Assembly: GCA_031402635.1 (NCBI GenBank)
Contig: JANNSM010000051.1
Span: forward strand, 1 to 34,694
Length of the DNA: 34,694 bases
Origin: Bacteroidota bacterium
GTDB lineage: Bacteria; Bacteroidota; Bacteroidia; Chitinophagales; BACL12
Reading direction: 5' to 3'
Below, piece by piece: positions 3,841 through 24,965 of this stretch. The notes below the pieces were generated by a model. That model was not told the origin of the DNA. It saw only the letters and a program-made list of their open reading frames with translations, and did no database searches. A program made the position numbers and the translations under genes. Every line of letters starts with the position of its first letter. The stretch's first letter is position 1.

Positions 3841-3876
3841 GGGGACGGCAAATTGATTTTGCCGTCCTTTTTTTTT
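3841..3876 (+). terminator. Rho-independent terminator
   Basis: GGACGGCAAA/TTTGCCGTCC stem followed by a long T-run, between convergent genes. Confidence 0.8.
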
Positions 3877-3925: not shown

Positions 3926-5782
3926 TTACCTGACCAACTGGAACAGGGATGCCTTGTAAACTGTATCCGGCGTTTTCAATTCCATCCAGTACACCCCGGA
4001 AGGCCAGGAAACACTTTGGCTGATTTCCAGATAAGTAGTCCCGGCTGGATTATCCAGATGCTCCTTATGCATCAAACGTCCGTCAGCAGACCAGATCTGC
4101 AGGATTCCGGAAGTAAGATTGCCATCTGTAAATTGGACAATTAACGGACCCTGCACCGGATTGCTTTGAGGAGTGATCCCCGCTTCGCGGAACAATGGCA
4201 TGGTCACCGTATAGACATCAGTGCCGAAAGATGTTGCTTGACCGCAACCGGTAAAGATTCTCCAGTCATAGGTCTCACCAGGTTCCAGCGTATCCAGTGT
4301 CAGTACATTGGTCAGGGAATTCTGACTATTCCAGACACTTGTTCCGCTAATCCGCGTCTGCAGCAAGTAGCCTCTTGCGCCGGGTTGCTCTTCCCAATTG
4401 AATTCTAAGGTGTTAGGTCCGCCAATATTGGCCGTTGGATTGGTGGGAATTCGGCAATACAATTGTTTGAGCAAAAAGAAGTTGCCTGTGCGCAGTCCGT
4501 CAACGGATTTGTTCCTCGCACCAATCAGTAAATCAGCAAGTCCGTCGCTATCAACATCGCCTGGAGAATTGACAGCACAACTAAAGAAATCGCTTGGGGC
4601 TAACTTGATTCCCAGGCCCCCGCTTGTTTCACTGATTTTATCGAAAAAAACGGGTATTCCATCCGATTGCAGGTATAGGATATACACCGCCCCTTTGTCT
4701 AAGATGCCGTCATTGCTGTCGTCGTCACCCGGGGAGCTGACGGCAAGCTCAGGGATACCGTCATTATTTAAATCATCAATTTTTGCCAAAGCGAAACCAA
4801 AGGCATCCCCCGGATCCAGCACGGTGCTCAAAAGCGGCAAATCCACACTGATCTCGATGTTTCGATTTACGACCCCTCCGGCGGTAAAACTCAACAGATG
4901 AACGCGACCCCGGGTATCTGCACCCCAGGCGCCTACGGCCAAAACACCGGTTCCCGGGCCACCCAAATCGCCAAGCCAGGCCATACCTGAACCGAAAAAG
5001 TCGCCGTTGTTGATGCGGCCGTTGAGAATCGGCTCCGATGGGTTTATGACCCGATAACTCAATACCAAACCGGCATTGTCCAGGTAAAGCAAGTAAAGTG
5101 CTCCGCCTGTATTGATCCCTCCTACGTTGTCATACGGTGCACTGACCATGATATCTGTTACGCCATTTCCGTCAACATCGCCGACCGAAGCAATAGCACT
5201 GCCAAAACGACTCAGGGAAGGAATCAACCCTGTTGGCAAGCCCCCAAAGCCATTGGTAATGCGCGTATAAAACCGCACCCCCCCAACAGAATCAAGAAAA
5301 CAGATATAGATTGCTCCGAGTTCCAGACCTCCGTCAACAATGGTTTGGGGTGCGCCGATTGCAAGTTCTGGAAGACCATCTCCGTCCAGATCACCAATAT
5401 TGGACATAGCATCGCCAAATACGCCGAATTCTGACAATTCCGGGATTTGATCCGGTCCGATCACTCCAACCGGCTGGATCTGGCCATTTGGCCTAACATT
5501 TAGTAACCAGGCTTTGCCGGCATTTTCAAGGCCCGGCAACACACCATCTGCGCTGCGTAGGCCCGCACCGATCAGGATACCCGCAGGTAGCCCCGGAAAA
5601 CTGCCCAGAGAAGCAAATGATGCCCCGAGGCGGTCGCCGTCCTGCAACACGCTATCAGCAATTGCATCCCGGACATTGAAGACCTTTTTTGCCGTAATCC
5701 TGAAAGGCTGTTGTGCGTGCACAACGCTCACCAGGCTTACCAAGGTGAGCACACAACAGAAAAGAAGCGTAAATCGTCGCAT
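3926..5782 (-). CDS. FG-GAP/integrin-alpha beta-propeller protein with FN3 domain and T9SS C-terminal sorting domain
   Basis: Start MRRFTLL at 5782 with a signal peptide (VHA|Q). Repeated FG...GDxDGDGxxELAxGAP motifs, an FN3-like LEPGETYDWRI segment and a C-terminal NPV...GR...PSGVYWM.L T9SS-type tail. Confidence 0.85.
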   Translation of the reverse strand: MRRFTLLFCCVLTLVSLVSVVHAQQPFRITAKKVFNVRDAIADSVLQDGDRLGASFASLGSFPGLPAGILIGAGLRSADGVLPGLENAGKAWLLNVRPNGQIQPVGVIGPDQIPELSEFGVFGDAMSNIGDLDGDGLPELAIGAPQTIVDGGLELGAIYICFLDSVGGVRFYTRITNGFGGLPTGLIPSLSRFGSAIASVGDVDGNGVTDIMVSAPYDNVGGINTGGALYLLYLDNAGLVLSYRVINPSEPILNGRINNGDFFGSGMAWLGDLGGPGTGVLAVGAWGADTRGRVHLLSFTAGGVVNRNIEISVDLPLLSTVLDPGDAFGFALAKIDDLNNDGIPELAVSSPGDDDSNDGILDKGAVYILYLQSDGIPVFFDKISETSGGLGIKLAPSDFFSCAVNSPGDVDSDGLADLLIGARNKSVDGLRTGNFFLLKQLYCRIPTNPTANIGGPNTLEFNWEEQPGARGYLLQTRISGTSVWNSQNSLTNVLTLDTLEPGETYDWRIFTGCGQATSFGTDVYTVTMPLFREAGITPQSNPVQGPLIVQFTDGNLTSGILQIWSADGRLMHKEHLDNPAGTTYLEISQSVSWPSGVYWMELKTPDTVYKASLFQLVR

Positions 5783-5895
5783 AAATACAGATTGAAGAAA
5801 ATGGATTACGCCGCAGAAGACCCTGTTTCCTGACCAAAACAACTATCTAAGTTAGGTAAAAATCGAGAATAAATGCACGATAGGGGCCTAAATCT

Positions 5896-15547: not shown

Positions 15548-15852
15548 TCAAATGTTTGTAGCGCCAACCATAAACCCGCTTCGTACTTCCAAACCGCTAA
15601 AATGCCAGAGCGATATCCAAACCCTGCATCGCCGTTCTCGTCTGTTCCCGCATCAAGGTTCCCCGGACCTTTGAACTTCAGAAAAAAGCCGTCTGGCACA
15701 CCGTCTGTAAGGCTGACCTTCGAACCTATTAATTCATTCAGCGTGTCCCGATGGTCGGCAGCTCGAATGCCGGCACCGGTACTCGGGTTGCCCGTTCCAG
15801 AAGGAAGATTTGTTGCGACCAGGTCATTCAGTTGTGCGTCTGTCAGTGCCAT
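15544..15852 (-). CDS. Putative spike adaptor/short fibre protein (102 aa)
   Basis: N-terminal L...NLP...I.AA..R..L pattern resembles phage fibre attachment domains. Translationally coupled on both sides. Confidence 0.45.
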   Translation of the reverse strand: MALTDAQLNDLVATNLPSGTGNPSTGAGIRAADHRDTLNELIGSKVSLTDGVPDGFFLKFKGPGNLDAGTDENGDAGFGYRSGILAVWKYEAGLWLALQTFE

Positions 15853-16340
15853 TAGGTTCCTTGGTCAGTGATAGAATAGTCTGATACGGAGTAATCCAGG
15901 ATGGAATAATCGAAAAGATTAAATGGCGTCAGCATATCCACCTTAAACAGAACAAACGTTCCGGTTACTACCAATCGGCCTGTGCCATTGCCAGCGATTG
16001 CCGATGATGCCTGCAGGTACACTGGCTGATTGATGTAGTCCTCGATTGGATCCGGATTATCTGGAGGGACTGCGGTTGTAAGTTCTAGGGAGCCGTTGAC
16101 AAGAGTTGCCGGATAAACCAAGGCCGCACTGCCCGATAAGCCATAGGTGACTTCCAGTGGCCCGGCAGTGGTGTATGCGATGTTGCCTGGAAGCAACCAG
16201 GCATCCAGCCGGATTAGGTGAGTATATCGCTCATCACCCGGTGAATTCAGCAGCATGACCGGTGTGGTGAATAGTGATCTAACCTGGGCTGCGCTCAGTT
16301 GAATCGTAAAGGATTGATATCGTGTAGTGCCCCGGATCAT
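15852..16340 (-). CDS. Small beta-rich structural protein, paralog B (vertex/penton or single jelly-roll candidate)
   Basis: Aligns end to end with 16337-16753 and has an extra DYS-repeat tail. Confidence 0.6.
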   Translation of the reverse strand: MIRGTTRYQSFTIQLSAAQVRSLFTTPVMLLNSPGDERYTHLIRLDAWLLPGNIAYTTAGPLEVTYGLSGSAALVYPATLVNGSLELTTAVPPDNPDPIEDYINQPVYLQASSAIAGNGTGRLVVTGTFVLFKVDMLTPFNLFDYSILDYSVSDYSITDQGT

Positions 16341-16753
16341 ACTTTAAACACGATGAAGCTTCCGTAAAGAGTAACCGTTCCGTTTCCCAAAGTAGGGGCG
16401 GCACCATCACTGGTCAACACCAGAGGCTGTGTGATGAAATTTGGCTCGTCAGCTGTTCCGTTCTGCTGCCCAAGGGCGAGCGCATCTACTGTGCCCTCCA
16501 GAAAGGATCCCGGCCAAAGAATCAGCCCGTTGGTGAAATCCGCACCGTAAACGAGCATCACGTCATTGGGGCTGACATAAGGTGTGTTACCCGCCATGAG
16601 GGCCATGTCCACGCGCAGCAAGTGGATATAGGAATCCGCTTCCGGCCGGGCAATCAACTGTACTGGCTCTGCATCCAGTGCCTGCAATTGAGCTGCCGAA
16701 ATGGTGGCTCGAAAGGTCATAAATTGGCCAGTAAAAGCGGTTTGTACTGCCAT
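16337..16753 (-). CDS. Small beta-rich structural protein, paralog A (vertex/penton or single jelly-roll candidate)
   Basis: SAAQL.AL...PV.LI..P...GNG...L motif, 138 aa. Confidence 0.6.
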   Translation of the reverse strand: MAVQTAFTGQFMTFRATISAAQLQALDAEPVQLIARPEADSYIHLLRVDMALMAGNTPYVSPNDVMLVYGADFTNGLILWPGSFLEGTVDALALGQQNGTADEPNFITQPLVLTSDGAAPTLGNGTVTLYGSFIVFKV

Positions 16754-16756
16754 TGT

Positions 16757-16912
16757 CTAGAAGGCTTTGGAAACAGCAAATCCGAGCACCATGGCCAGGA
16801 AAATTCCGACGAACAGTGCTGCTCCCAGTCCAATCAGCGTGCTTGTTGGAATAGTAGCCTCAAAGCGAATCGGTGCGTCTCCACTTAAGATGCTCGTGAA
16901 TTCGTCTTCCAT
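16757..16912 (-). CDS. 51-aa tail-anchored membrane protein (not in ORF track)
   Basis: MEDEFTSILSGDAPIRFEATIPTSTLIGLGAALFVGIFLAMVLGFAVSKAF*. Ends 3 nt before the next ATG. Confidence 0.75.
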   Translation of the reverse strand: MEDEFTSILSGDAPIRFEATIPTSTLIGLGAALFVGIFLAMVLGFAVSKAF

Positions 16913-16988
16913 TTGAAAGCGAGATAACCGGTTAGTGCCACCAACAACGCCACAGCGATCACTGCGCCAATGCTGAGGGCATAATCAA

Positions 16989-17657
16989 TCAGTGCAGACT
17001 TTTTTTTTCCTGGTTGATCGCTACCAGGTCCATGCCCGCCAGGGGCTCTGTGTAGGGCTGTGGTAATTCCGGAAAGTGCTCCAGGCGGTTCAGCCATCCG
17101 TTGAGGAACACTGCTTGTGACGGATCCGGTTGGAAGCGCCAGCTGCGGAATAATTCCGCGTAACCATTGGATTCGGGAAGCTGAGCGGCTCGAAACTGGT
17201 ACCAGGCGCTCCGGCTTTCCCGGTAGTCGTTGTGGACCTTGGCCTTGTCGGCTATGTTTGTTGCGCCGAGGGTTTTGTTGCCGAATATTCCGTCCACGAT
17301 CAGCGTTGCGCCGTTTACGTTTAATGCTGTTTGAAACAGCTTGACCGCCGTTCCCGGATGATTGACTTTCGCGTCCACCAGAATATTGGCCAGCGCCTGA
17401 TCGGCGATTTTGTCTGCCTTCACGCTGTCCCAAAACCAAGTTTTATAGATCTCATCGGCTTCGCTTTTTGTCAGGTTTCGCATGTCCGTTGCTGAAACCG
17501 AATACCCGCGCCAGGCTTCAAGAGTCTGTGCAGATATCCCCCAGTTTGTTCCCGCTAGCTCACCAAGGCTATTGTAGTTGCCTCGATCAGACGTGTGATT
17601 CTGATAGCCACCTTCGGCTTCAGCGAGCAGCGGAATGAATGCGTTAAAGCTGGCCAT
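16989..17657 (-). CDS. GH108 family muramidase (lysozyme) with peptidoglycan-binding C-terminal part; possible -1 frameshift extension to 16885
   Basis: EGGY.N...D.G...T.WGI, D..VN, DG..G.KTL and F..GW..R motifs. Confidence 0.9.
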   Translation of the reverse strand: MASFNAFIPLLAEAEGGYQNHTSDRGNYNSLGELAGTNWGISAQTLEAWRGYSVSATDMRNLTKSEADEIYKTWFWDSVKADKIADQALANILVDAKVNHPGTAVKLFQTALNVNGATLIVDGIFGNKTLGATNIADKAKVHNDYRESRSAWYQFRAAQLPESNGYAELFRSWRFQPDPSQAVFLNGWLNRLEHFPELPQPYTEPLAGMDLVAINQEKKSLH

Positions 17658-17665
17658 TGATCAGG

Positions 17666-17806
17666 TTAGGGTGCCGGCTGTGCGGTCACATCACCGCTCG
17701 ATGCGGTTTTGGAGGAATCAATCATGCCCTGGATGTAGTTGGCCAGCAGAACGGCCACAATGCCTACGGCCAGAGTAATCAGATAGGGAGCGATTTTTTT
17801 GAACAT
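17666..17806 (-). CDS. 46-aa membrane protein (not in ORF track)
   Basis: MFKKIAPYLITLAVGIVAVLLANYIQGMIDSSKTASSGDVTAQPAP*. Confidence 0.75.
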   Translation of the reverse strand: MFKKIAPYLITLAVGIVAVLLANYIQGMIDSSKTASSGDVTAQPAP

Positions 17807-17820
17807 GGGATTGGTTTTGG

Positions 17821-18234
17821 TTAAAGACTTAATCGTGTCAACCGGTCATAGACCTCGTTGCGTAGTGAAATGGATGAAGGCCAAATCAGCCATTCGTTGC
17901 CGACAAAGCTTCGAATGGTGGGATGCTCCTGGTCTCCGTAAATCATCCGAAAGGCATTGTTCACTTCGATGAACTCTGCATCGGTTAAATCCAGGATCAT
18001 ATTCATGGCAGCCTGAAATGCGCCATAGCTTGTCGGGCCTTCCAGGGCAAGCCGGAGCTCGGTTGCAATGTTGTTAGCGTCAAATGTGGGACCGATCAGT
18101 GGGTTTCCTTCATAATCCTGCGGCACGTAACCGGCAGGCTCGGTATACACAAATTGGTAAACCAGATAAAGAACAATGGCGATAGCTGCTGCGCCAATAA
18201 TCCATGCTTGATACTTTTTCCAAAATGTGCTCAT
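17821..18234 (-). CDS. N-terminally anchored membrane protein (137 aa)
   Basis: N-terminal TM followed by a helical domain. ATGA coupling. Confidence 0.75.
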   Translation of the reverse strand: MSTFWKKYQAWIIGAAAIAIVLYLVYQFVYTEPAGYVPQDYEGNPLIGPTFDANNIATELRLALEGPTSYGAFQAAMNMILDLTDAEFIEVNNAFRMIYGDQEHPTIRSFVGNEWLIWPSSISLRNEVYDRLTRLSL

Positions 18235-18344
18235 ACCGGAATCTGGTTGAAAACGTAATCGTCACTTTTTTGAGTGGCTTGATTAACCACATACCAAACC
18301 ACTAGCAGCACCAGGCCGCCAAGGATCCAATACCGATACTTCAT
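18231..18344 (-). CDS. 37-aa membrane protein (not in ORF track)
   Basis: MKYRYWILGGLVLLVVWYVVNQATQKSDDYVFNQIPV*. TAATG and ATGA overlaps on the two sides. Confidence 0.8.
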   Translation of the reverse strand: MKYRYWILGGLVLLVVWYVVNQATQKSDDYVFNQIPV

Positions 18345-18436
18345 TAAAGCACCCATTCGAGCAGCGGAAGATTTTTAAGACCGTACCATGCCAGCACAAT
18401 CAGGATTAACAGAATGAACCAGGGAACAGGAATCAT
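18344..18436 (-). CDS. 30-aa membrane protein (not in ORF track)
   Basis: MIPVPWFILLILIVLAWYGLKNLPLLEWVL*. TAATG overlap with the next gene. Confidence 0.75.
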   Translation of the reverse strand: MIPVPWFILLILIVLAWYGLKNLPLLEWVL

Positions 18437-18442
18437 GGGCAG

Positions 18443-18757
18443 TTATTTAGCAGAGTATTTTGTGTACACCGCATACTTACCATTTGAGGATCGTCCATTG
18501 CCCTTGTGTTTTCCCGTACGGGCAGTGGAAGCGCTGGCAAGATGAACGGACAGCGAGCCATGCTTCAGCGATTTTTTTCGCTTGACATAGAATGCCTTCA
18601 GTTTCTCCGCGCCGGCTTTTAGCGGAAACACATGTTGCAGCTCCAGTCGTTTCCCGCCAACAGTTTTATATGTCGGCCACGATGACGGCTTTTTGCTCGC
18701 CGGGCGCTTGGCCGCTGTCTTCTTTTTGCCCGGCTTGGGTTTATTGGTGTTGGCCAT
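18443..18757 (-). CDS. Highly basic protein (possible genome-condensing/core protein)
   Basis: 104 aa, very K/R-rich with almost no acidic residues, inside the structural operon. Confidence 0.65.
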   Translation of the reverse strand: MANTNKPKPGKKKTAAKRPASKKPSSWPTYKTVGGKRLELQHVFPLKAGAEKLKAFYVKRKKSLKHGSLSVHLASASTARTGKHKGNGRSSNGKYAVYTKYSAK

Positions 18758-18759
18758 GA

Positions 18760-18831
18760 TTATCGTCTTGCGATCAGGTAGGTGACTACTACGGCTACCA
18801 GGATCCAGTAAACGGGAATGCGATTGTTCAC
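18760..18831 (-). CDS. 23-aa membrane microprotein (not in ORF track)
   Basis: GTG start, MNNRIPVYWILVAVVVTYLIARR*. Ends 2 nt before the next ATG. Confidence 0.65.
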   Translation of the reverse strand: MNNRIPVYWILVAVVVTYLIARR

Positions 18832-18843
18832 TTCCTTCGATTT

Positions 18844-19161
18844 TTACGGGTAATCAATTATGTCCCAATCCTCTTCGTTCTCCATCCACCACATTGCCTC
18901 CACGGGCAGTTGGGCTTCCACGGTGCGGTTGGCTTTGGCTGCCTGTTCGTTGACGTGCAGCATCCAGTCCGGATCGGCACTGATCATGTCAATTCGCTTT
19001 TGCAGATATGGCTGAAAGGCCGGATCCAGGCGGGAGACTGGCATGCCTGGTCCCATGGGCACGGTCTCTGGCTCCGTTTCTGAAAATCCCAGAACCCAAA
19101 CGGCCGCCACCACTGCGCAAAGCACGAAGAAGCCCAGAAGGAACAGGATCGTTTTGCTCAT
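18844..19161 (-). CDS. N-terminally anchored membrane protein (105 aa)
   Basis: N-terminal TM, ATGA coupling. Confidence 0.75.
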   Translation of the reverse strand: MSKTILFLLGFFVLCAVVAAVWVLGFSETEPETVPMGPGMPVSRLDPAFQPYLQKRIDMISADPDWMLHVNEQAAKANRTVEAQLPVEAMWWMENEEDWDIIDYP

Positions 19162-19385
19162 TTTACGGTCACCGTTAACACCTCCAATTCATCGCGTCTT
19201 TTCCCGGGAGTGGACGACATTAAGTCGTTGGCATTGTAGGTTACATACTGGCTCCCATCAATGGTTTTCGGTGGCATAGGCAGCTCGCTCGTGTAGTAAA
19301 CATCCTCCTGTGTTGTGTACCACCAAATGGCCACACCCAGCAGGATTGAAACCAAAACCACCGGTATGATCACCTTCCAATTCAT
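19158..19385 (-). CDS. N-terminally anchored membrane protein (75 aa)
   Basis: N-terminal TM, ATGA coupling. Confidence 0.75.
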   Translation of the reverse strand: MNWKVIIPVVLVSILLGVAIWWYTTQEDVYYTSELPMPPKTIDGSQYVTYNANDLMSSTPGKRRDELEVLTVTVK

Positions 19386-19633
19386 GCACCAAGATTAGTT
19401 GGTATGCCATTTTTATCCACGCCACTGTATGCACTCAAATCAGTACCGCCATAACCAGCAAGAACACCGGATTGGATGGAAACGGCCGTTGCGTCCACAA
19501 GAAGCAGATTTGGATCGCTACGTCCTGAATCCTCGCCTGCTTCATAGGAAGACGGCGGAGCGTAAATCAGAAAGTACCAGGCTGCCACTGCCAAGGCGAT
19601 TGCACCGAGTATCCACCAGTGTGTGCTTTTCAT
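19382..19633 (-). CDS. N-terminally anchored membrane protein (83 aa)
   Basis: N-terminal TM WWILGAIALAVAAWYFLIY. Confidence 0.75.
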   Translation of the reverse strand: MKSTHWWILGAIALAVAAWYFLIYAPPSSYEAGEDSGRSDPNLLLVDATAVSIQSGVLAGYGGTDLSAYSGVDKNGIPTNLGA

Positions 19634-19996: not shown

Positions 19997-20641
19997 CTAG
20001 GTCAAGCGGGACAGAACGGCTTTGATGAAGAACAACAGGTTCACCGTCTGGGATGGATTAATCCGCAGGCGAAGCGCTGTGTTGCCGTCCAGGATCACGT
20101 TGCAGGGCAGTGTCAACAAATCGCTTTGAAACTGCGTGTTGCGCTGTGCCATCGCCGGGGTAATGGTGTCCGTGTTGCGGCTGCCATCCAAGTCAATTCG
20201 GTCAAAGCGCACGTTATTGAATGCGCTGTCGCTGGCTTTGTAGTTGAAGCCGACAAACTGAATCGGGTTGGCCTCCACGGACTTCTTCACTGCATTGTAG
20301 GGTGCTGTGACTCCGGTCACGGTGATGTTGGCGTTCTGAACGTATGCCTCCGTGTCGGTGATAAAACCGAAAGCGTCAAAAAGGATGATGTCGTAAGCCG
20401 TCACTGCGGATGCGTTCACAATGGAAACCTCGAAAGTATCGGGGCTTGGACGCATCGGCGGCAGCATCGTGTTCTGATTGGGATCGTTCCGCTTGAATGA
20501 AACCGGTACCGGTACGGAGGGAACGCTGTTGCCGTTCTGGCTCGCCGCGCCAAGGCGGCCGCGAATCCTGCCGGCATTGTTCTGGAGCTGACCTGCAAAT
20601 TGCCGGCCACGCCCACGCTGCGACATCACTTCATTTGCCAT
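19997..20641 (-). CDS. Putative major capsid protein (basic N-terminal arm plus ~150-aa beta-rich domain)
   Basis: Two genes downstream of the packaging ATPase, with its own promoter and a 3' hairpin. R/G-rich N-arm and alternating hydrophobic beta-strand pattern. Fold is inferred. Confidence 0.55.
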   Translation of the reverse strand: MANEVMSQRGRGRQFAGQLQNNAGRIRGRLGAASQNGNSVPSVPVPVSFKRNDPNQNTMLPPMRPSPDTFEVSIVNASAVTAYDIILFDAFGFITDTEAYVQNANITVTGVTAPYNAVKKSVEANPIQFVGFNYKASDSAFNNVRFDRIDLDGSRNTDTITPAMAQRNTQFQSDLLTLPCNVILDGNTALRLRINPSQTVNLLFFIKAVLSRLT

Positions 20642-21208: not shown

Positions 21209-21835
21209 CTAGCGGATAATTTCGTGATAATGAGGATTGGCTTGTGAGAGACGCTGGATCCTGTCGTGGGCGGCCAGTACTTGTGTTGGGTTGGCCAACA
21301 TTCGCTTGCGATCATCAATTGGTCTGGCGATCCGGAATAGCACGATGTCAGTGGAAAACTGAAAGAACTTCGGCGGCACATCCTGAAATGAATGCGCTAC
21401 CACGAAAATGTCCAGCATATACTGTCGTCTTCTGATCAGCAGTTGGTGGAGCTCGTCTTCCAGGTTTGCTTTCAGGTAAGTCCTGCAATCGTCAAAGACT
21501 AAGATGCCATTTCGATAGAAGTTTCTTAAGAGCCTGAGTGTGGCATCATCGTGCTGAGCCCAGTTTATCCTACGGATTCCCTGAAACGCCATCATTTCCG
21601 ACCGGTCGGCCGGATCAATTTCCTTAAATGATTGCCAAACACGTTCCGCATTTTCAAAGTCAACAACCAATACCCGGCGGAAGCCTTTGACGGCCTGTAC
21701 TACTTTAAAAAGGTAGGTTGTCTTACCGGTACCATTGGTGCCAATCACGAGTGCCTGGCGCGTTGTCCTGGGCTTTTCTTGCTGCACCTCTGCCACGGGT
21801 TTCGTTCTGGACTTGCGCTTACTCGGCTGTGGCAT
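21209..21835 (-). CDS. FtsK/HerA-superfamily (A32-like) genome-packaging ATPase
   Basis: Walker A GTNGTGKTT, Walker B ILVFDD, then RRRQ (arginine finger) and IFVVAH strand, then IVLFR. 208 aa, no TM and no nuclease domain. Confidence 0.8.
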   Translation of the reverse strand: MPQPSKRKSRTKPVAEVQQEKPRTTRQALVIGTNGTGKTTYLFKVVQAVKGFRRVLVVDFENAERVWQSFKEIDPADRSEMMAFQGIRRINWAQHDDATLRLLRNFYRNGILVFDDCRTYLKANLEDELHQLLIRRRQYMLDIFVVAHSFQDVPPKFFQFSTDIVLFRIARPIDDRKRMLANPTQVLAAHDRIQRLSQANPHYHEIIR

Positions 21836-23854: not shown

Positions 23855-23883
23855 AAAACCCCGGTCTATTTGGCCGGGGTTTT
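23855..23883. terminator. Bidirectional terminator
   Basis: AAAACCCCGGT-CTATTT-GGCCGGGGTTTT between convergent genes. Confidence 0.8.
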
Positions 23884-24790
23884 ATTCAGACGAACCTGTG
23901 ACATATGCGTTGCCCAGGTTGTTTTCAACAATTTTTACAGCATCAGTGCTAGCAAAAGTGAGCATATAGGCGTGATGAATTGAAAGCACCAAGTCTTGTA
24001 ATGTGTTGTCCTGCTCCAGTGCCTGAACCTTTAGTTTAAGCTTGTCGCGGCAGTAGTCTATGCCCAAATGACGACTATGGCTCTTCGTCTCTCTGTGGTC
24101 ACACAATAACTCTGATGCTGTGGTGGCCAAGTCAGACGCATTTGGCAGACTAGCAAACATTACTTGCTCTAGGTTTTCCTTGGTCGCTGATCTAGACCAC
24201 TCTACCGCTGATTGACACCCTACGACCAATGTAAGGGGGAACCGGCTGATAAGGACTTGCGCTAGGGCAACTAAATCCGGATCGCTTTTCGCCAGATTTT
24301 GAACGCTTTCAAACTCCTCAAGTATCGCCATGGCTGCAGCATAACCCTGGCCTGGTATAAAAATTTGTGGGTCTATTGGCCCGAGACTCGACTGCTTACC
24401 CATCCATATTTCCTTACTGGCACAGGCTATCGAAGTACCGGCGGACATTGCGATTTGTGGTACAAATGTCCTTATGTCAGAATTGAACATTTGCTTTAAA
24501 TACTGCATTATAGATTCTGAGGCTGCAATGTCGCCCCCTAGTGTATGTAGGATTAAATCCAAGCCGCGGTCACGGTTCTGAAGACCATGAACAACCGACA
24601 TAAATGCATTCATATCGGCATCTAATATCTGGCATGCAGGATCATGGCTTTTACTTAAAAACCCAGCATAATAACAAATTGTGTGGCGCCCAGTATAGCT
24701 CGATAATTGACCAATGTAATCTTTCCTAACCTGGTCATGCGGCAAGGGAATTGATCTTGCTCTCTCAACAATTTCATTCCAACTAGGCAT
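23882..24790 (-). CDS. ClpP-fold serine protease, SDH family (accessory)
   Basis: Start MPSWNEI at 24790. LDLILHT.GG, AMSAGT, S.LGPIDPQ and SH.R motifs. Confidence 0.85.
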   Translation of the reverse strand: MPSWNEIVERARSIPLPHDQVRKDYIGQLSSYTGRHTICYYAGFLSKSHDPACQILDADMNAFMSVVHGLQNRDRGLDLILHTLGGDIAASESIMQYLKQMFNSDIRTFVPQIAMSAGTSIACASKEIWMGKQSSLGPIDPQIFIPGQGYAAAMAILEEFESVQNLAKSDPDLVALAQVLISRFPLTLVVGCQSAVEWSRSATKENLEQVMFASLPNASDLATTASELLCDHRETKSHSRHLGIDYCRDKLKLKVQALEQDNTLQDLVLSIHHAYMLTFASTDAVKIVENNLGNAYVTGSSE

Positions 24791-24965
24791 TTTTATATGA
24801 AATTGGTTGAGTGGTGTTGGAAAGCCAGTACTTGGCTTTTTTTGTTGACTTAGGCACGGGCTTAAACCGTAGAAACTTTGACAGTAACTCAATCCTGTTG
24901 GTCTCAGATTCTATGCCCAGGTCCTTAAAAATTTGATTAATCTCCTCTGCTGTTGTTCTTTTCAT
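24783..24965 (-). CDS. Small basic protein coupled to the SDH protease (60 aa)
   Basis: ATG start, overlaps the protease start by 8 nt. Confidence 0.5.
   Translation of the reverse strand: MKRTTAEEINQIFKDLGIESETNRIELLSKFLRFKPVPKSTKKAKYWLSNTTQPISYKNA

Follow-up and report, generated by a model that had tools for sequence, protein, structure and literature searches.

A candidate −1 recoding site between enzyme and membrane anchor in a phage-type GH108 lysin of Bacteroidota

RESULTS

A lysin gene ends just past an A9 run that opens onto a predicted transmembrane tail in the −1 frame

We analysed the 3′ end of a phage-type lysin gene in a 34,694-nucleotide stretch of DNA from a Bacteroidota bacterium (contig JANNSM010000051.1 of GenBank assembly GCA_031402635.1). 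This stretch, which we call the window, is the entire contig C51 of genome bin G000 (3.25 Mb; 504 contigs; 94% complete). The lysin gene ends just past a run of nine A residues (A9), and an open reading frame (ORF) that continues from this run in the −1 frame encodes a predicted transmembrane (TM) helix. The features at this end of the gene are as follows.

16989..17657, minus strand: zero-frame lysin ORF of 222 aa, with a GH108 muramidase domain and PG_binding_3; the candidate soluble isoform
17000..17008, minus strand: A9 slippery run (T9 on the plus strand), with the lysin stop 8 nt past the run
17001-17007, minus strand: in-phase heptamer A_AAA_AAA, zero-frame codons GAA AAA AAA
16885..17001, minus strand: −1-frame tail of 38 codons plus TAA, with a K-rich junction, one predicted TM helix and a basic C-terminus
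16925..16991, minus strand: possible stimulatory RNA hairpin, weakly indicated, starting 8 nt after the run
16757..16912, minus strand: 51-aa TM ORF, next after the lysin, overlapped by 26 nt by the tail

Residues 11-100 of the lysin match Pfam Glyco_hydro_108 (PF05838; 6.7e-22, 78.3 bits, cutoff 21.2), and residues 104-193, after the catalytic domain, match PG_binding_3 (PF09374; 1.1e-9, 38.8 bits, cutoff 24.6); no other family passes in the Pfam scan. The PHROG match is phrog_315, endolysin (8.8e-31). The motif E15-G16-G17-Y18 is invariant or nearly so across 62 homologs, and we take its role to be catalytic. The protein is not built as a signal-anchor-release (SAR) endolysin: its N-terminus is taken up by GH108 from residue 11 on, and the hydrophobic segment lies at the C-terminal end, outside the lysin frame.

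The gene ends CAG GAA AAA AAA AGT CTG CAC TGA (stop codon 16989-16991). A preliminary description of this DNA had given the same gene end and the same position for the A9 run, and both were confirmed when the sequence was re-read. The heptamer A_AAA_AAA has the X_XXY_YYZ form of a −1 frameshift site and lies in phase with the lysin frame, and the run has the length associated with transcriptional slippage (about nine or more A/T in the coding strand). Downstream, the −1 frame closes at a TAA (16885-16887). Its predicted TM helix spans approximately 16915-16992, with a hydrophobic stretch of about 26 residues and a best 17-residue Kyte-Doolittle mean of 2.58; this translation bears out the TM helix with a basic tail that had been described. 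A slip at A_AAA_AAA would join 219 zero-frame residues to 38 tail residues in a 257-aa product, in agreement with the lengths first proposed for a soluble (222 aa) and an anchored (257 aa) form. The tail had also been said to fill an empty 76-nt gap. The distance from the lysin stop to the next ATG (16912) is indeed 76 nt, but the last 26 nt of the tail overlap the next ORF.

Most protein relatives carry the anchor in frame

A search of 5.8 billion proteins yielded 103 lysin homologs. A hydrophobicity scan placed an in-frame C-terminal TM helix in 66 of them; enzyme, wall-binding domain and C-terminal anchor are therefore the usual architecture of this branch. The −1-frame tail of the window resembles the in-frame C-terminal TM tail of one homolog, P0010: the match covers 19 aa at 68% (E 8e-5), and an equally high score was reached by 1 of 200 shuffles. 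About 13 of the 103 homologs, picked by eye, end a few residues past an [E/Q]KK(K) motif and have no TM helix. Among these are the three closest relatives, P0003-P0005 (45-60% identity), which all end ...LNxEKK....

Searches for the DNA of these three relatives gave no match by blastn against phages and no relative in single-protein scans of viral contigs; one metagenome scan and one genome-contig scan returned relatives of 28-48% identity only. Cultured phages hold only relatives of at most 35% identity (58 records). At the two cultured-phage loci that we inspected, a holin gene lies upstream of a soluble lysin, and the gene downstream encodes a spanin in one and a hypothetical protein in the other.

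The −1 frame relation recurs across the lysin family

We gathered lysin loci at the DNA level from IMG/VR, JGI metagenomes, GTDB genomes and targeted genome searches, and read the ORF ends in all frames. The 89 loci with a tblastn match were reduced by 11 duplicates and 1 truncated copy to 77 evaluable loci. At 13 of these, from 12 assemblies, an in-phase A_AAA_AAN is followed directly by a helix in the −1 frame (the window, L007, L021, L024, L027, L028, L075-L080 and L089). The anchor helix is in frame at 17 loci, a TM-like stretch lies in the +1 frame at one (L029), and at the remaining 46 either no helix adjoins the lysin or a separate gene, started by an ATG of its own, follows. The check proposed in the preliminary description, that homologs keep an out-of-frame TM helix behind a poly-A run, thus came out positive at 12 further loci.

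The zero-frame stop lies 3-35 nt past the run at the 13 −1 loci, and the run lengths are A9 (four loci), A10 (five), A11 (one), A7 (one) and A6 (two). An in-phase heptamer is trivial in a long run and informative at the three loci with A6 or A7. All three are in exact phase, as TCA AAA AAC twice and GAA AAA AAG once, and one of them lies in a single-contig genome. A sample of one genus gave a match in 13 of 301 genomes; among its eight small lysin copies, seven are of the −1 type, one is +1 and none is in frame.

Some loci depart from this pattern. Two loci have A10 runs in frame relations other than −1: the helix is in frame at L068, from a single-contig genome, and the TM-like stretch is in +1 at L029 (= L081). 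Tract length therefore does change at the DNA level. Our script had filed L029 under −1 owing to a separate, ATG-started downstream gene, and we reassigned it by hand. L029 has a 35-codon zero-frame extension and could represent either a damaged copy or a variant that depends on slippage. L051/L052, tried as a further +1 case, was rejected, the hydrophobic +1 stretch being an off-frame of an ATG-started lipoprotein gene. Three loci with the helix in frame (L068, L071 and L073) have a slippery heptamer in the linker (A10, A7 and A_AAA_AAG, respectively). A −1 shift there would run into a stop after 3-18 codons and yield a truncated soluble lysin, which is the opposite polarity.

Three further observations concern individual loci. 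A Tenacibaculum genome, G1111, has two diverged lysin copies (L024/L088 and L089) on different contigs, both with A10 and the helix in −1. L083-L085, in the sampled genus, differ in architecture: their GH108 domain is embedded in an open frame of 929-936 codons, and no recoding site adjoins it. L034 has a tandem 7-nt repeat of about eight copies directly after the lysin stop.

The tails stay open and hydrophobic while their sequences diverge

Starts within the −1 frame are few. At 9 of the 13 −1 loci there is no ATG, GTG or TTG before the helix; among the 12 loci other than the window an upstream ATG occurs at L079 only (39 nt upstream), and a GTG or TTG stands at the start of the helix at L007 and L028. 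The tail had been described as having no ATG of its own. This holds for those nine tails and fails for the window itself, where an in-frame ATG lies within the lysin body, 117 nt 5′ of the most hydrophobic 17-residue stretch. At 5 of the 13 loci, a −1-frame stop codon sits right where the run begins and marks the opening of that frame, which can therefore only be entered at this point.

Under a different explanation the tail would be a separate, holin-like gene for a small membrane protein, whose translation would begin by reinitiation or at a non-canonical start codon and whose leader, in the Bacteroidota style, would be the A-rich run. Leaders rich in A promote initiation in Bacteroidota, the window has small TM ORFs on either side of the lysin, and the candidate starts just listed (GTG/TTG at L007 and L028, an upstream −1 ATG in the window and L079) would suit such a gene. 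Against it stand the nine tails with no start before the helix, and the equivalent helix that forms the in-frame C-terminus of the lysin at 17 loci and in 66 of the 103 database proteins. The resemblance of the window tail to the in-frame tail of P0010 argues the same way, and we consider a separate gene improbable.

Within clusters of related loci, tail pairs have pS of 0.36-0.82, with one closer pair (L027-L077) at 0.11. All 13 tails are open and hydrophobic despite this near-saturated divergence, and pN/pS is below 1 in 14 of 15 tail pairs, values that are uncorrected and come from short, saturated alignments. On a quick maximum-likelihood tree of 48 domains, the −1 state occurs in at least five clusters separated by in-frame relatives. 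It needs 5 changes on this tree, compared with a mean of 11.6 when states are shuffled (0 of 500 shuffles as low), and the well-supported (starred) branches force at least two changes. The loci thus show the marks of a frameshift site: an open, coding −1 ORF with no start of its own (the window itself having the upstream ATG), and conservation of both the site and the frame relation.

A tract that is hypermutable at the DNA level would offer another account of out-of-frame tails. The functional protein would then be the in-frame anchored lysin, and the assemblies would have caught an out-of-frame state produced by phase variation or by inactivating prophage indels. Tract length and frame do vary among relatives, as L068 and L029 illustrate, runs of nine or more are known as hypermutable and slippage-prone (PMC1088944), and minor variants are invisible in contigs. 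Yet among loci with a tract, 13 are in −1 as opposed to one in +1 and one in frame, and all eight small copies of one genus are out of frame. The three A6/A7 loci, where replication slippage is rare, keep a diverged, open and hydrophobic −1 tail. Lysin bodies are intact at all 13 −1 loci, and decaying copies would not be expected to end up in one and the same frame every time. We therefore hold a hypermutable tract to be unlikely.

The A9 run and its tail are unlikely to be due to assembly error or chance

A homopolymer error would mean a true A10 and a single 257-aa anchored protein, and a one-base undercall would give exactly the picture seen here. We compared positions 16600-17700 with Logan contigs from two runs of one study, X1 (depth 14.4) and X2 (depth 25.2), which are possibly the source samples. 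There were 0 differences and 0 gaps, and the A9 was identical; minor variants in run length are not visible in this comparison because the compared sequences are contigs. The question raised in the preliminary description, whether the run is A9 or A10, is thus answered at the contig level as A9 in two further per-run assemblies (14x and 25x). The same frame relation is found at 12 loci of other assemblies, including the A6/A7 sites. On these grounds we rejected an assembly or sequencing error as very improbable.

Long A runs are few in this genome. Across the 3,247,587 bases of G000 (GC content 52.3%) there are 51 A/T runs of nine or more. Its long ORFs contain 92 KKK triplets, of which only 4 are spelled AAA AAA AAA, where about 24 would be expected from the AAA share of lysine codons (64%, or 0.64); A9-encoded KKK is strongly avoided. 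The window has a second T9/A9 run at 3868-3876, about 50 nt beyond the stop of a minus-strand ORF (3926..5842).

As a chance baseline we took the stop-to-stop ORFs of G000 with 150 codons or more, 3888 in number. In 153 of them a TM-like −1 stretch runs across the stop, and 67 have an in-phase A_AAA_AAN within the last 60 nt. The combination of a heptamer and a TM-like −1 stretch open from that heptamer is found in 4, the lysin included, and on this baseline we rejected a chance ORF as the explanation of the tail. The other three ORF ends with the combination lie on C24, C116 and C177, and at least one of them looks like a downstream lipoprotein gene.

Ribosomal frameshifting and transcriptional slippage are both candidate routes

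The length of the run bears on the route by which the −1 frame could be entered. At A6 or A7 (3 of the 13 −1 loci) slippage of RNA polymerase or of replication is unlikely, and ribosomal −1 frameshifting is therefore the plausible route. The other 10 loci have at least nine A's (A9-A11), so transcriptional slippage may contribute in the window. In many bacteria, selection against slippage has been reported to show itself from runs of nine upward, and the dnaX gene of Thermus uses a run of nine A's (PMC1088944). Transcriptional slippage could also explain how the +1 and in-frame tract variants still yield both forms.

For ribosomal frameshifting, the decoding tRNA is relevant. The only tRNA-Lys among 37 tRNAs in the 94%-complete bin G000 is tRNA-Lys(UUU), and a single Lys tRNA has been linked to shift-prone A-rich heptamers (PMC5009743). 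A stimulatory structure downstream of the run is not a general feature. For positions 16925-16999 (minus strand) the predicted fold has an energy of −27.7 kcal/mol, which 6 of 200 dinucleotide shuffles also reach (z −2.0). The three short-run loci share a hairpin of 6-7 bp, 6 nt past the run, with no covariation. No downstream hairpin was found at the long-run, AT-rich loci, and an Rfam search gave no family at E <= 1 save a chance match to a long non-coding RNA (lncRNA).

The gene probably encodes a soluble and an anchored lysin

Taken together, these results point to a conserved, programmed −1 recoding of a phage-type GH108 lysin that probably produces a soluble and an anchored form. The site, the open −1 tail and their conservation across relatives are read directly from the sequences. 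From these we infer that both products are made in the window, in some ratio and by one of the two routes at the A9 run. Standard decoding would give the 222-aa soluble muramidase, ending 8 nt after the A9. A fraction of expression events would shift to −1 on A_AAA_AAA, through ribosomal frameshifting or, at nine or more A's, through an extra A added by RNA polymerase. The shift would append 38 residues, including the C-terminal TM helix, to give the 257-aa anchored lysin. By analogy with the endolysins M4Lys and Enc34 ORF39 (see Discussion), a minor anchored form might reach or perturb the membrane and start lysis, as its trigger or localiser, and the soluble form would carry out the bulk of wall degradation. 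The central proposal of the preliminary description, that a −1 shift lets one gene make a free and a membrane-bound muramidase, gains support from the same layout at 12 further loci.

Several points weigh against this interpretation. The relatives are not independent, with 7 of the 13 −1 loci coming from one genus, and the closest relatives (P0003-P0005) were compared as proteins only, outside the DNA-level comparison. L068 and L029 have A10 runs with the helix in frame and in +1, respectively, and the −1 frame of the window contains the ATG within the lysin body. The hairpin of the window reaches a z of −2.0 only, and there is no general downstream stimulatory structure (z above −1 at 9 of the 13 loci). 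AT-rich Flavobacteriia easily write a juxtamembrane KKK as A9, so the run is perhaps partly codon usage. Finally, all support is genomic, and the two products are predicted from it.

A broader version of the proposal, which we offer tentatively and consider less likely to be right than wrong, is a switch that operates across the lysin family in Bacteroidota mobile elements. The −1 efficiency at the junction of enzyme and anchor might set the ratio of harmless soluble to self-inserting anchored muramidase, as a holin-independent lysis clock made from a single gene. The site would have drifted between purely ribosomal A6/A7 heptamers and slippage-prone A9-A11 runs, and between a polarity that adds the anchor and one that removes it.

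The candidate recoded lysins lie in different elements

The genes around the lysin of the window bear on the type of element and on the role of an anchored form. The principal features, all on the minus strand, are listed below; the first three lie upstream of the lysin.

21209-21835, minus strand: 208-aa ATPase
19997-20641, minus strand: 214-aa protein
17666-19633, minus strand: string of small single-TM ORFs
15852-16340 and 16337-16753, minus strand: two paralogous ORFs 3′ of the lysin and the 51-aa TM ORF (28% over 131 aa, E 1e-19)
23882-24892, minus strand: 336-aa ORF, ClpP-like SDH-type serine protease (PF01972, 5.4e-15)

The 208-aa protein is a Walker-type ATPase that matches phrog_2666, 'terminase large subunit' (8.6e-15). 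The 214-aa protein has a basic, disordered N-terminal arm and a beta-rich body in an AF2 model of low confidence (pLDDT 52.8), and in a PDB fold search with this model single-jelly-roll viral coat proteins head the list (best E 3.3e-3). The ATPase, the small TM ORFs and the modelled 214-aa protein may hint at a tailless, possibly membrane-containing Bacteroidota phage. The 336-aa ORF could encode a prohead or scaffold protease; alternatively, it could belong to the host and lie at the edge of the element. The two paralogous ORFs have no Pfam or PHROG match. In homolog searches bearing on the element type, each of two ORFs of the window had only two relatives besides the window's own protein.

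Such a setting would also suit a functional variant of our proposal, in which the recoding is real and the anchored isoform serves DNA entry as an enzyme of an internal virion membrane, and not as a lysis trigger. PRD1 P7 is a membrane-bound virion lytic enzyme of this kind. The many small TM ORFs of the window operon, the terminase-like PHROG match of the ATPase and the coat-like best matches of the 214-aa model would fit this variant. The model is poor, however, and has no match at E <= 0.001; the other −1 loci lie in different elements, with no neighbours in common with the window; and, with only GH108 and PG_binding_3 passing in Pfam, no transglycosylase domain is seen. We consider this variant on the whole unlikely. 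By analogy, an M4Lys/Enc34-like role in lysis and a PRD1-like role in virion entry appear equally plausible.

A comparison of the window's neighbour genes with those at other lysin loci gave one weak match only, and the other recoded loci that we inspected lie in different modules of about 15-20 kb. The Flavobacteriia recoded lysins (regions L092, L093 and L094, around L076, L089 and L075) are accompanied by many small TM ORFs and an adjoining ORF of 1016-1502 aa. The large ORF of L092 (1185 aa) has ArdC-like anti-restriction (3.6e-67), primase (4.4e-25) and ATPase parts; those of L093 and L094 have no PHROG match.

DISCUSSION

Both programmed −1 recoding and endolysins with a C-terminal transmembrane domain (TMD) have been described before. 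What appears to be new is the two together, conserved across Bacteroidota elements. Our literature search found no frameshift or slippage in an endolysin gene, the supplementary gene tables of surveys lying outside that search. Hits that name both a frameshift and an endolysin concern frameshifts in tail assembly chaperones (e.g. PMC3091744). The part searched of a recoding review (PMC5009743) does not contain 'endolysin', 'lysozyme' or 'holin', and the main text of the GeneTack survey (PMC3711429) does not contain 'endolysin', 'holin', 'lysozyme', 'muramidase' or 'lysin', though its cluster tables, like the list of genes with 9A/9T that goes with PMC1088944, may include the family. Annotation calls a short soluble lysin followed by an empty gap, and the anchored isoform is therefore missing from protein databases. 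If confirmed, this would be, as far as our search shows, the first recoding event in an endolysin gene. It would connect the timing of phage lysis with the question of how endolysins that carry a C-terminal TMD gain access to the wall when neither holin nor Sec is involved, and wall access could be probed with the two natural isoforms, one having the TMD and one lacking it. It would further add a clean, conserved cassette for frameshifting or slippage that is native to Bacteroidota, a group with translation signals unlike those of E. coli.

A close parallel in site design is dnaX (tau/gamma), in which an A-rich heptamer or an A9 late in the gene yields two proteins with a common N-terminus and different C-termini. 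E. coli dnaX uses −1 frameshifting at A_AAA_AAG and that of Thermus thermophilus uses transcriptional slippage on A9, and among relatives of dnaX this position is taken by a short heptamer in some and a long run in others (PMC5009743, PMC1088944). The shifted dnaX product is the shorter one, whereas the shifted lysin would gain a membrane anchor; a polarity like that of dnaX is seen at the in-frame loci L068, L071 and L073. The lysin also differs in belonging to another gene family, in having no Shine-Dalgarno-like (SD-like) or strong hairpin stimulator that we could find, and in being known from sequence alone.

Tail assembly chaperones (lambda G/GT and P2 E/E+E′) likewise have a conserved −1 frameshift in a phage gene that extends the C-terminus. 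Their frameshift gives a fixed ratio, often without a downstream structure (PMC3091744). The lysin differs as a lysis enzyme, where theirs is an assembly protein, and in that its extension is a TM helix.

Lysis genes with two products are also known. The lambda pair S105/S107 arises from one lysis gene through alternative starts. Mycobacteriophage Ms6 lysA gives two products, again through alternative starts (PMC3111421). The lysin proposed here resembles Ms6 lysA in making two isoforms with different behaviour from one lysis gene; unlike both systems, whose products differ at the N-terminus by alternative initiation, its isoforms would differ at the C-terminus by recoding. PRD1 P7 compares in being a wall-degrading enzyme tied to a membrane, in the window possibly also that of a tailless phage. 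It belongs to another catalytic family, and the element context of the window is not common to the other recoded loci.

In behaviour, the lysin may resemble M4Lys of Salmonella phage BSPM4. That enzyme needs neither holin nor Sec to lyse E. coli but depends on its TMD, and the truncated form does not lyse (PMC7143992). Enc34 ORF39 behaves likewise; the arrangement has been called limited to Chivirus-like phages, with an export route described as unknown (PMC8943055). Both have, like the anchored lysin, an N-terminal peptidoglycan hydrolase and a C-terminal TM segment, and the zero-frame and −1 products would correspond to their delta-TMD and full-length forms. We suggest by analogy that the lysin works like this type and do not claim membership for it, its catalytic domain being GH108 by Pfam. 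The two phage enzymes are of the PHA02564 type with an in-frame TMD of two helices, whereas the lysin family described here pairs GH108 with a single helix in Bacteroidota hosts, and in its −1 subset the anchor would be reached only by a shift of frame.

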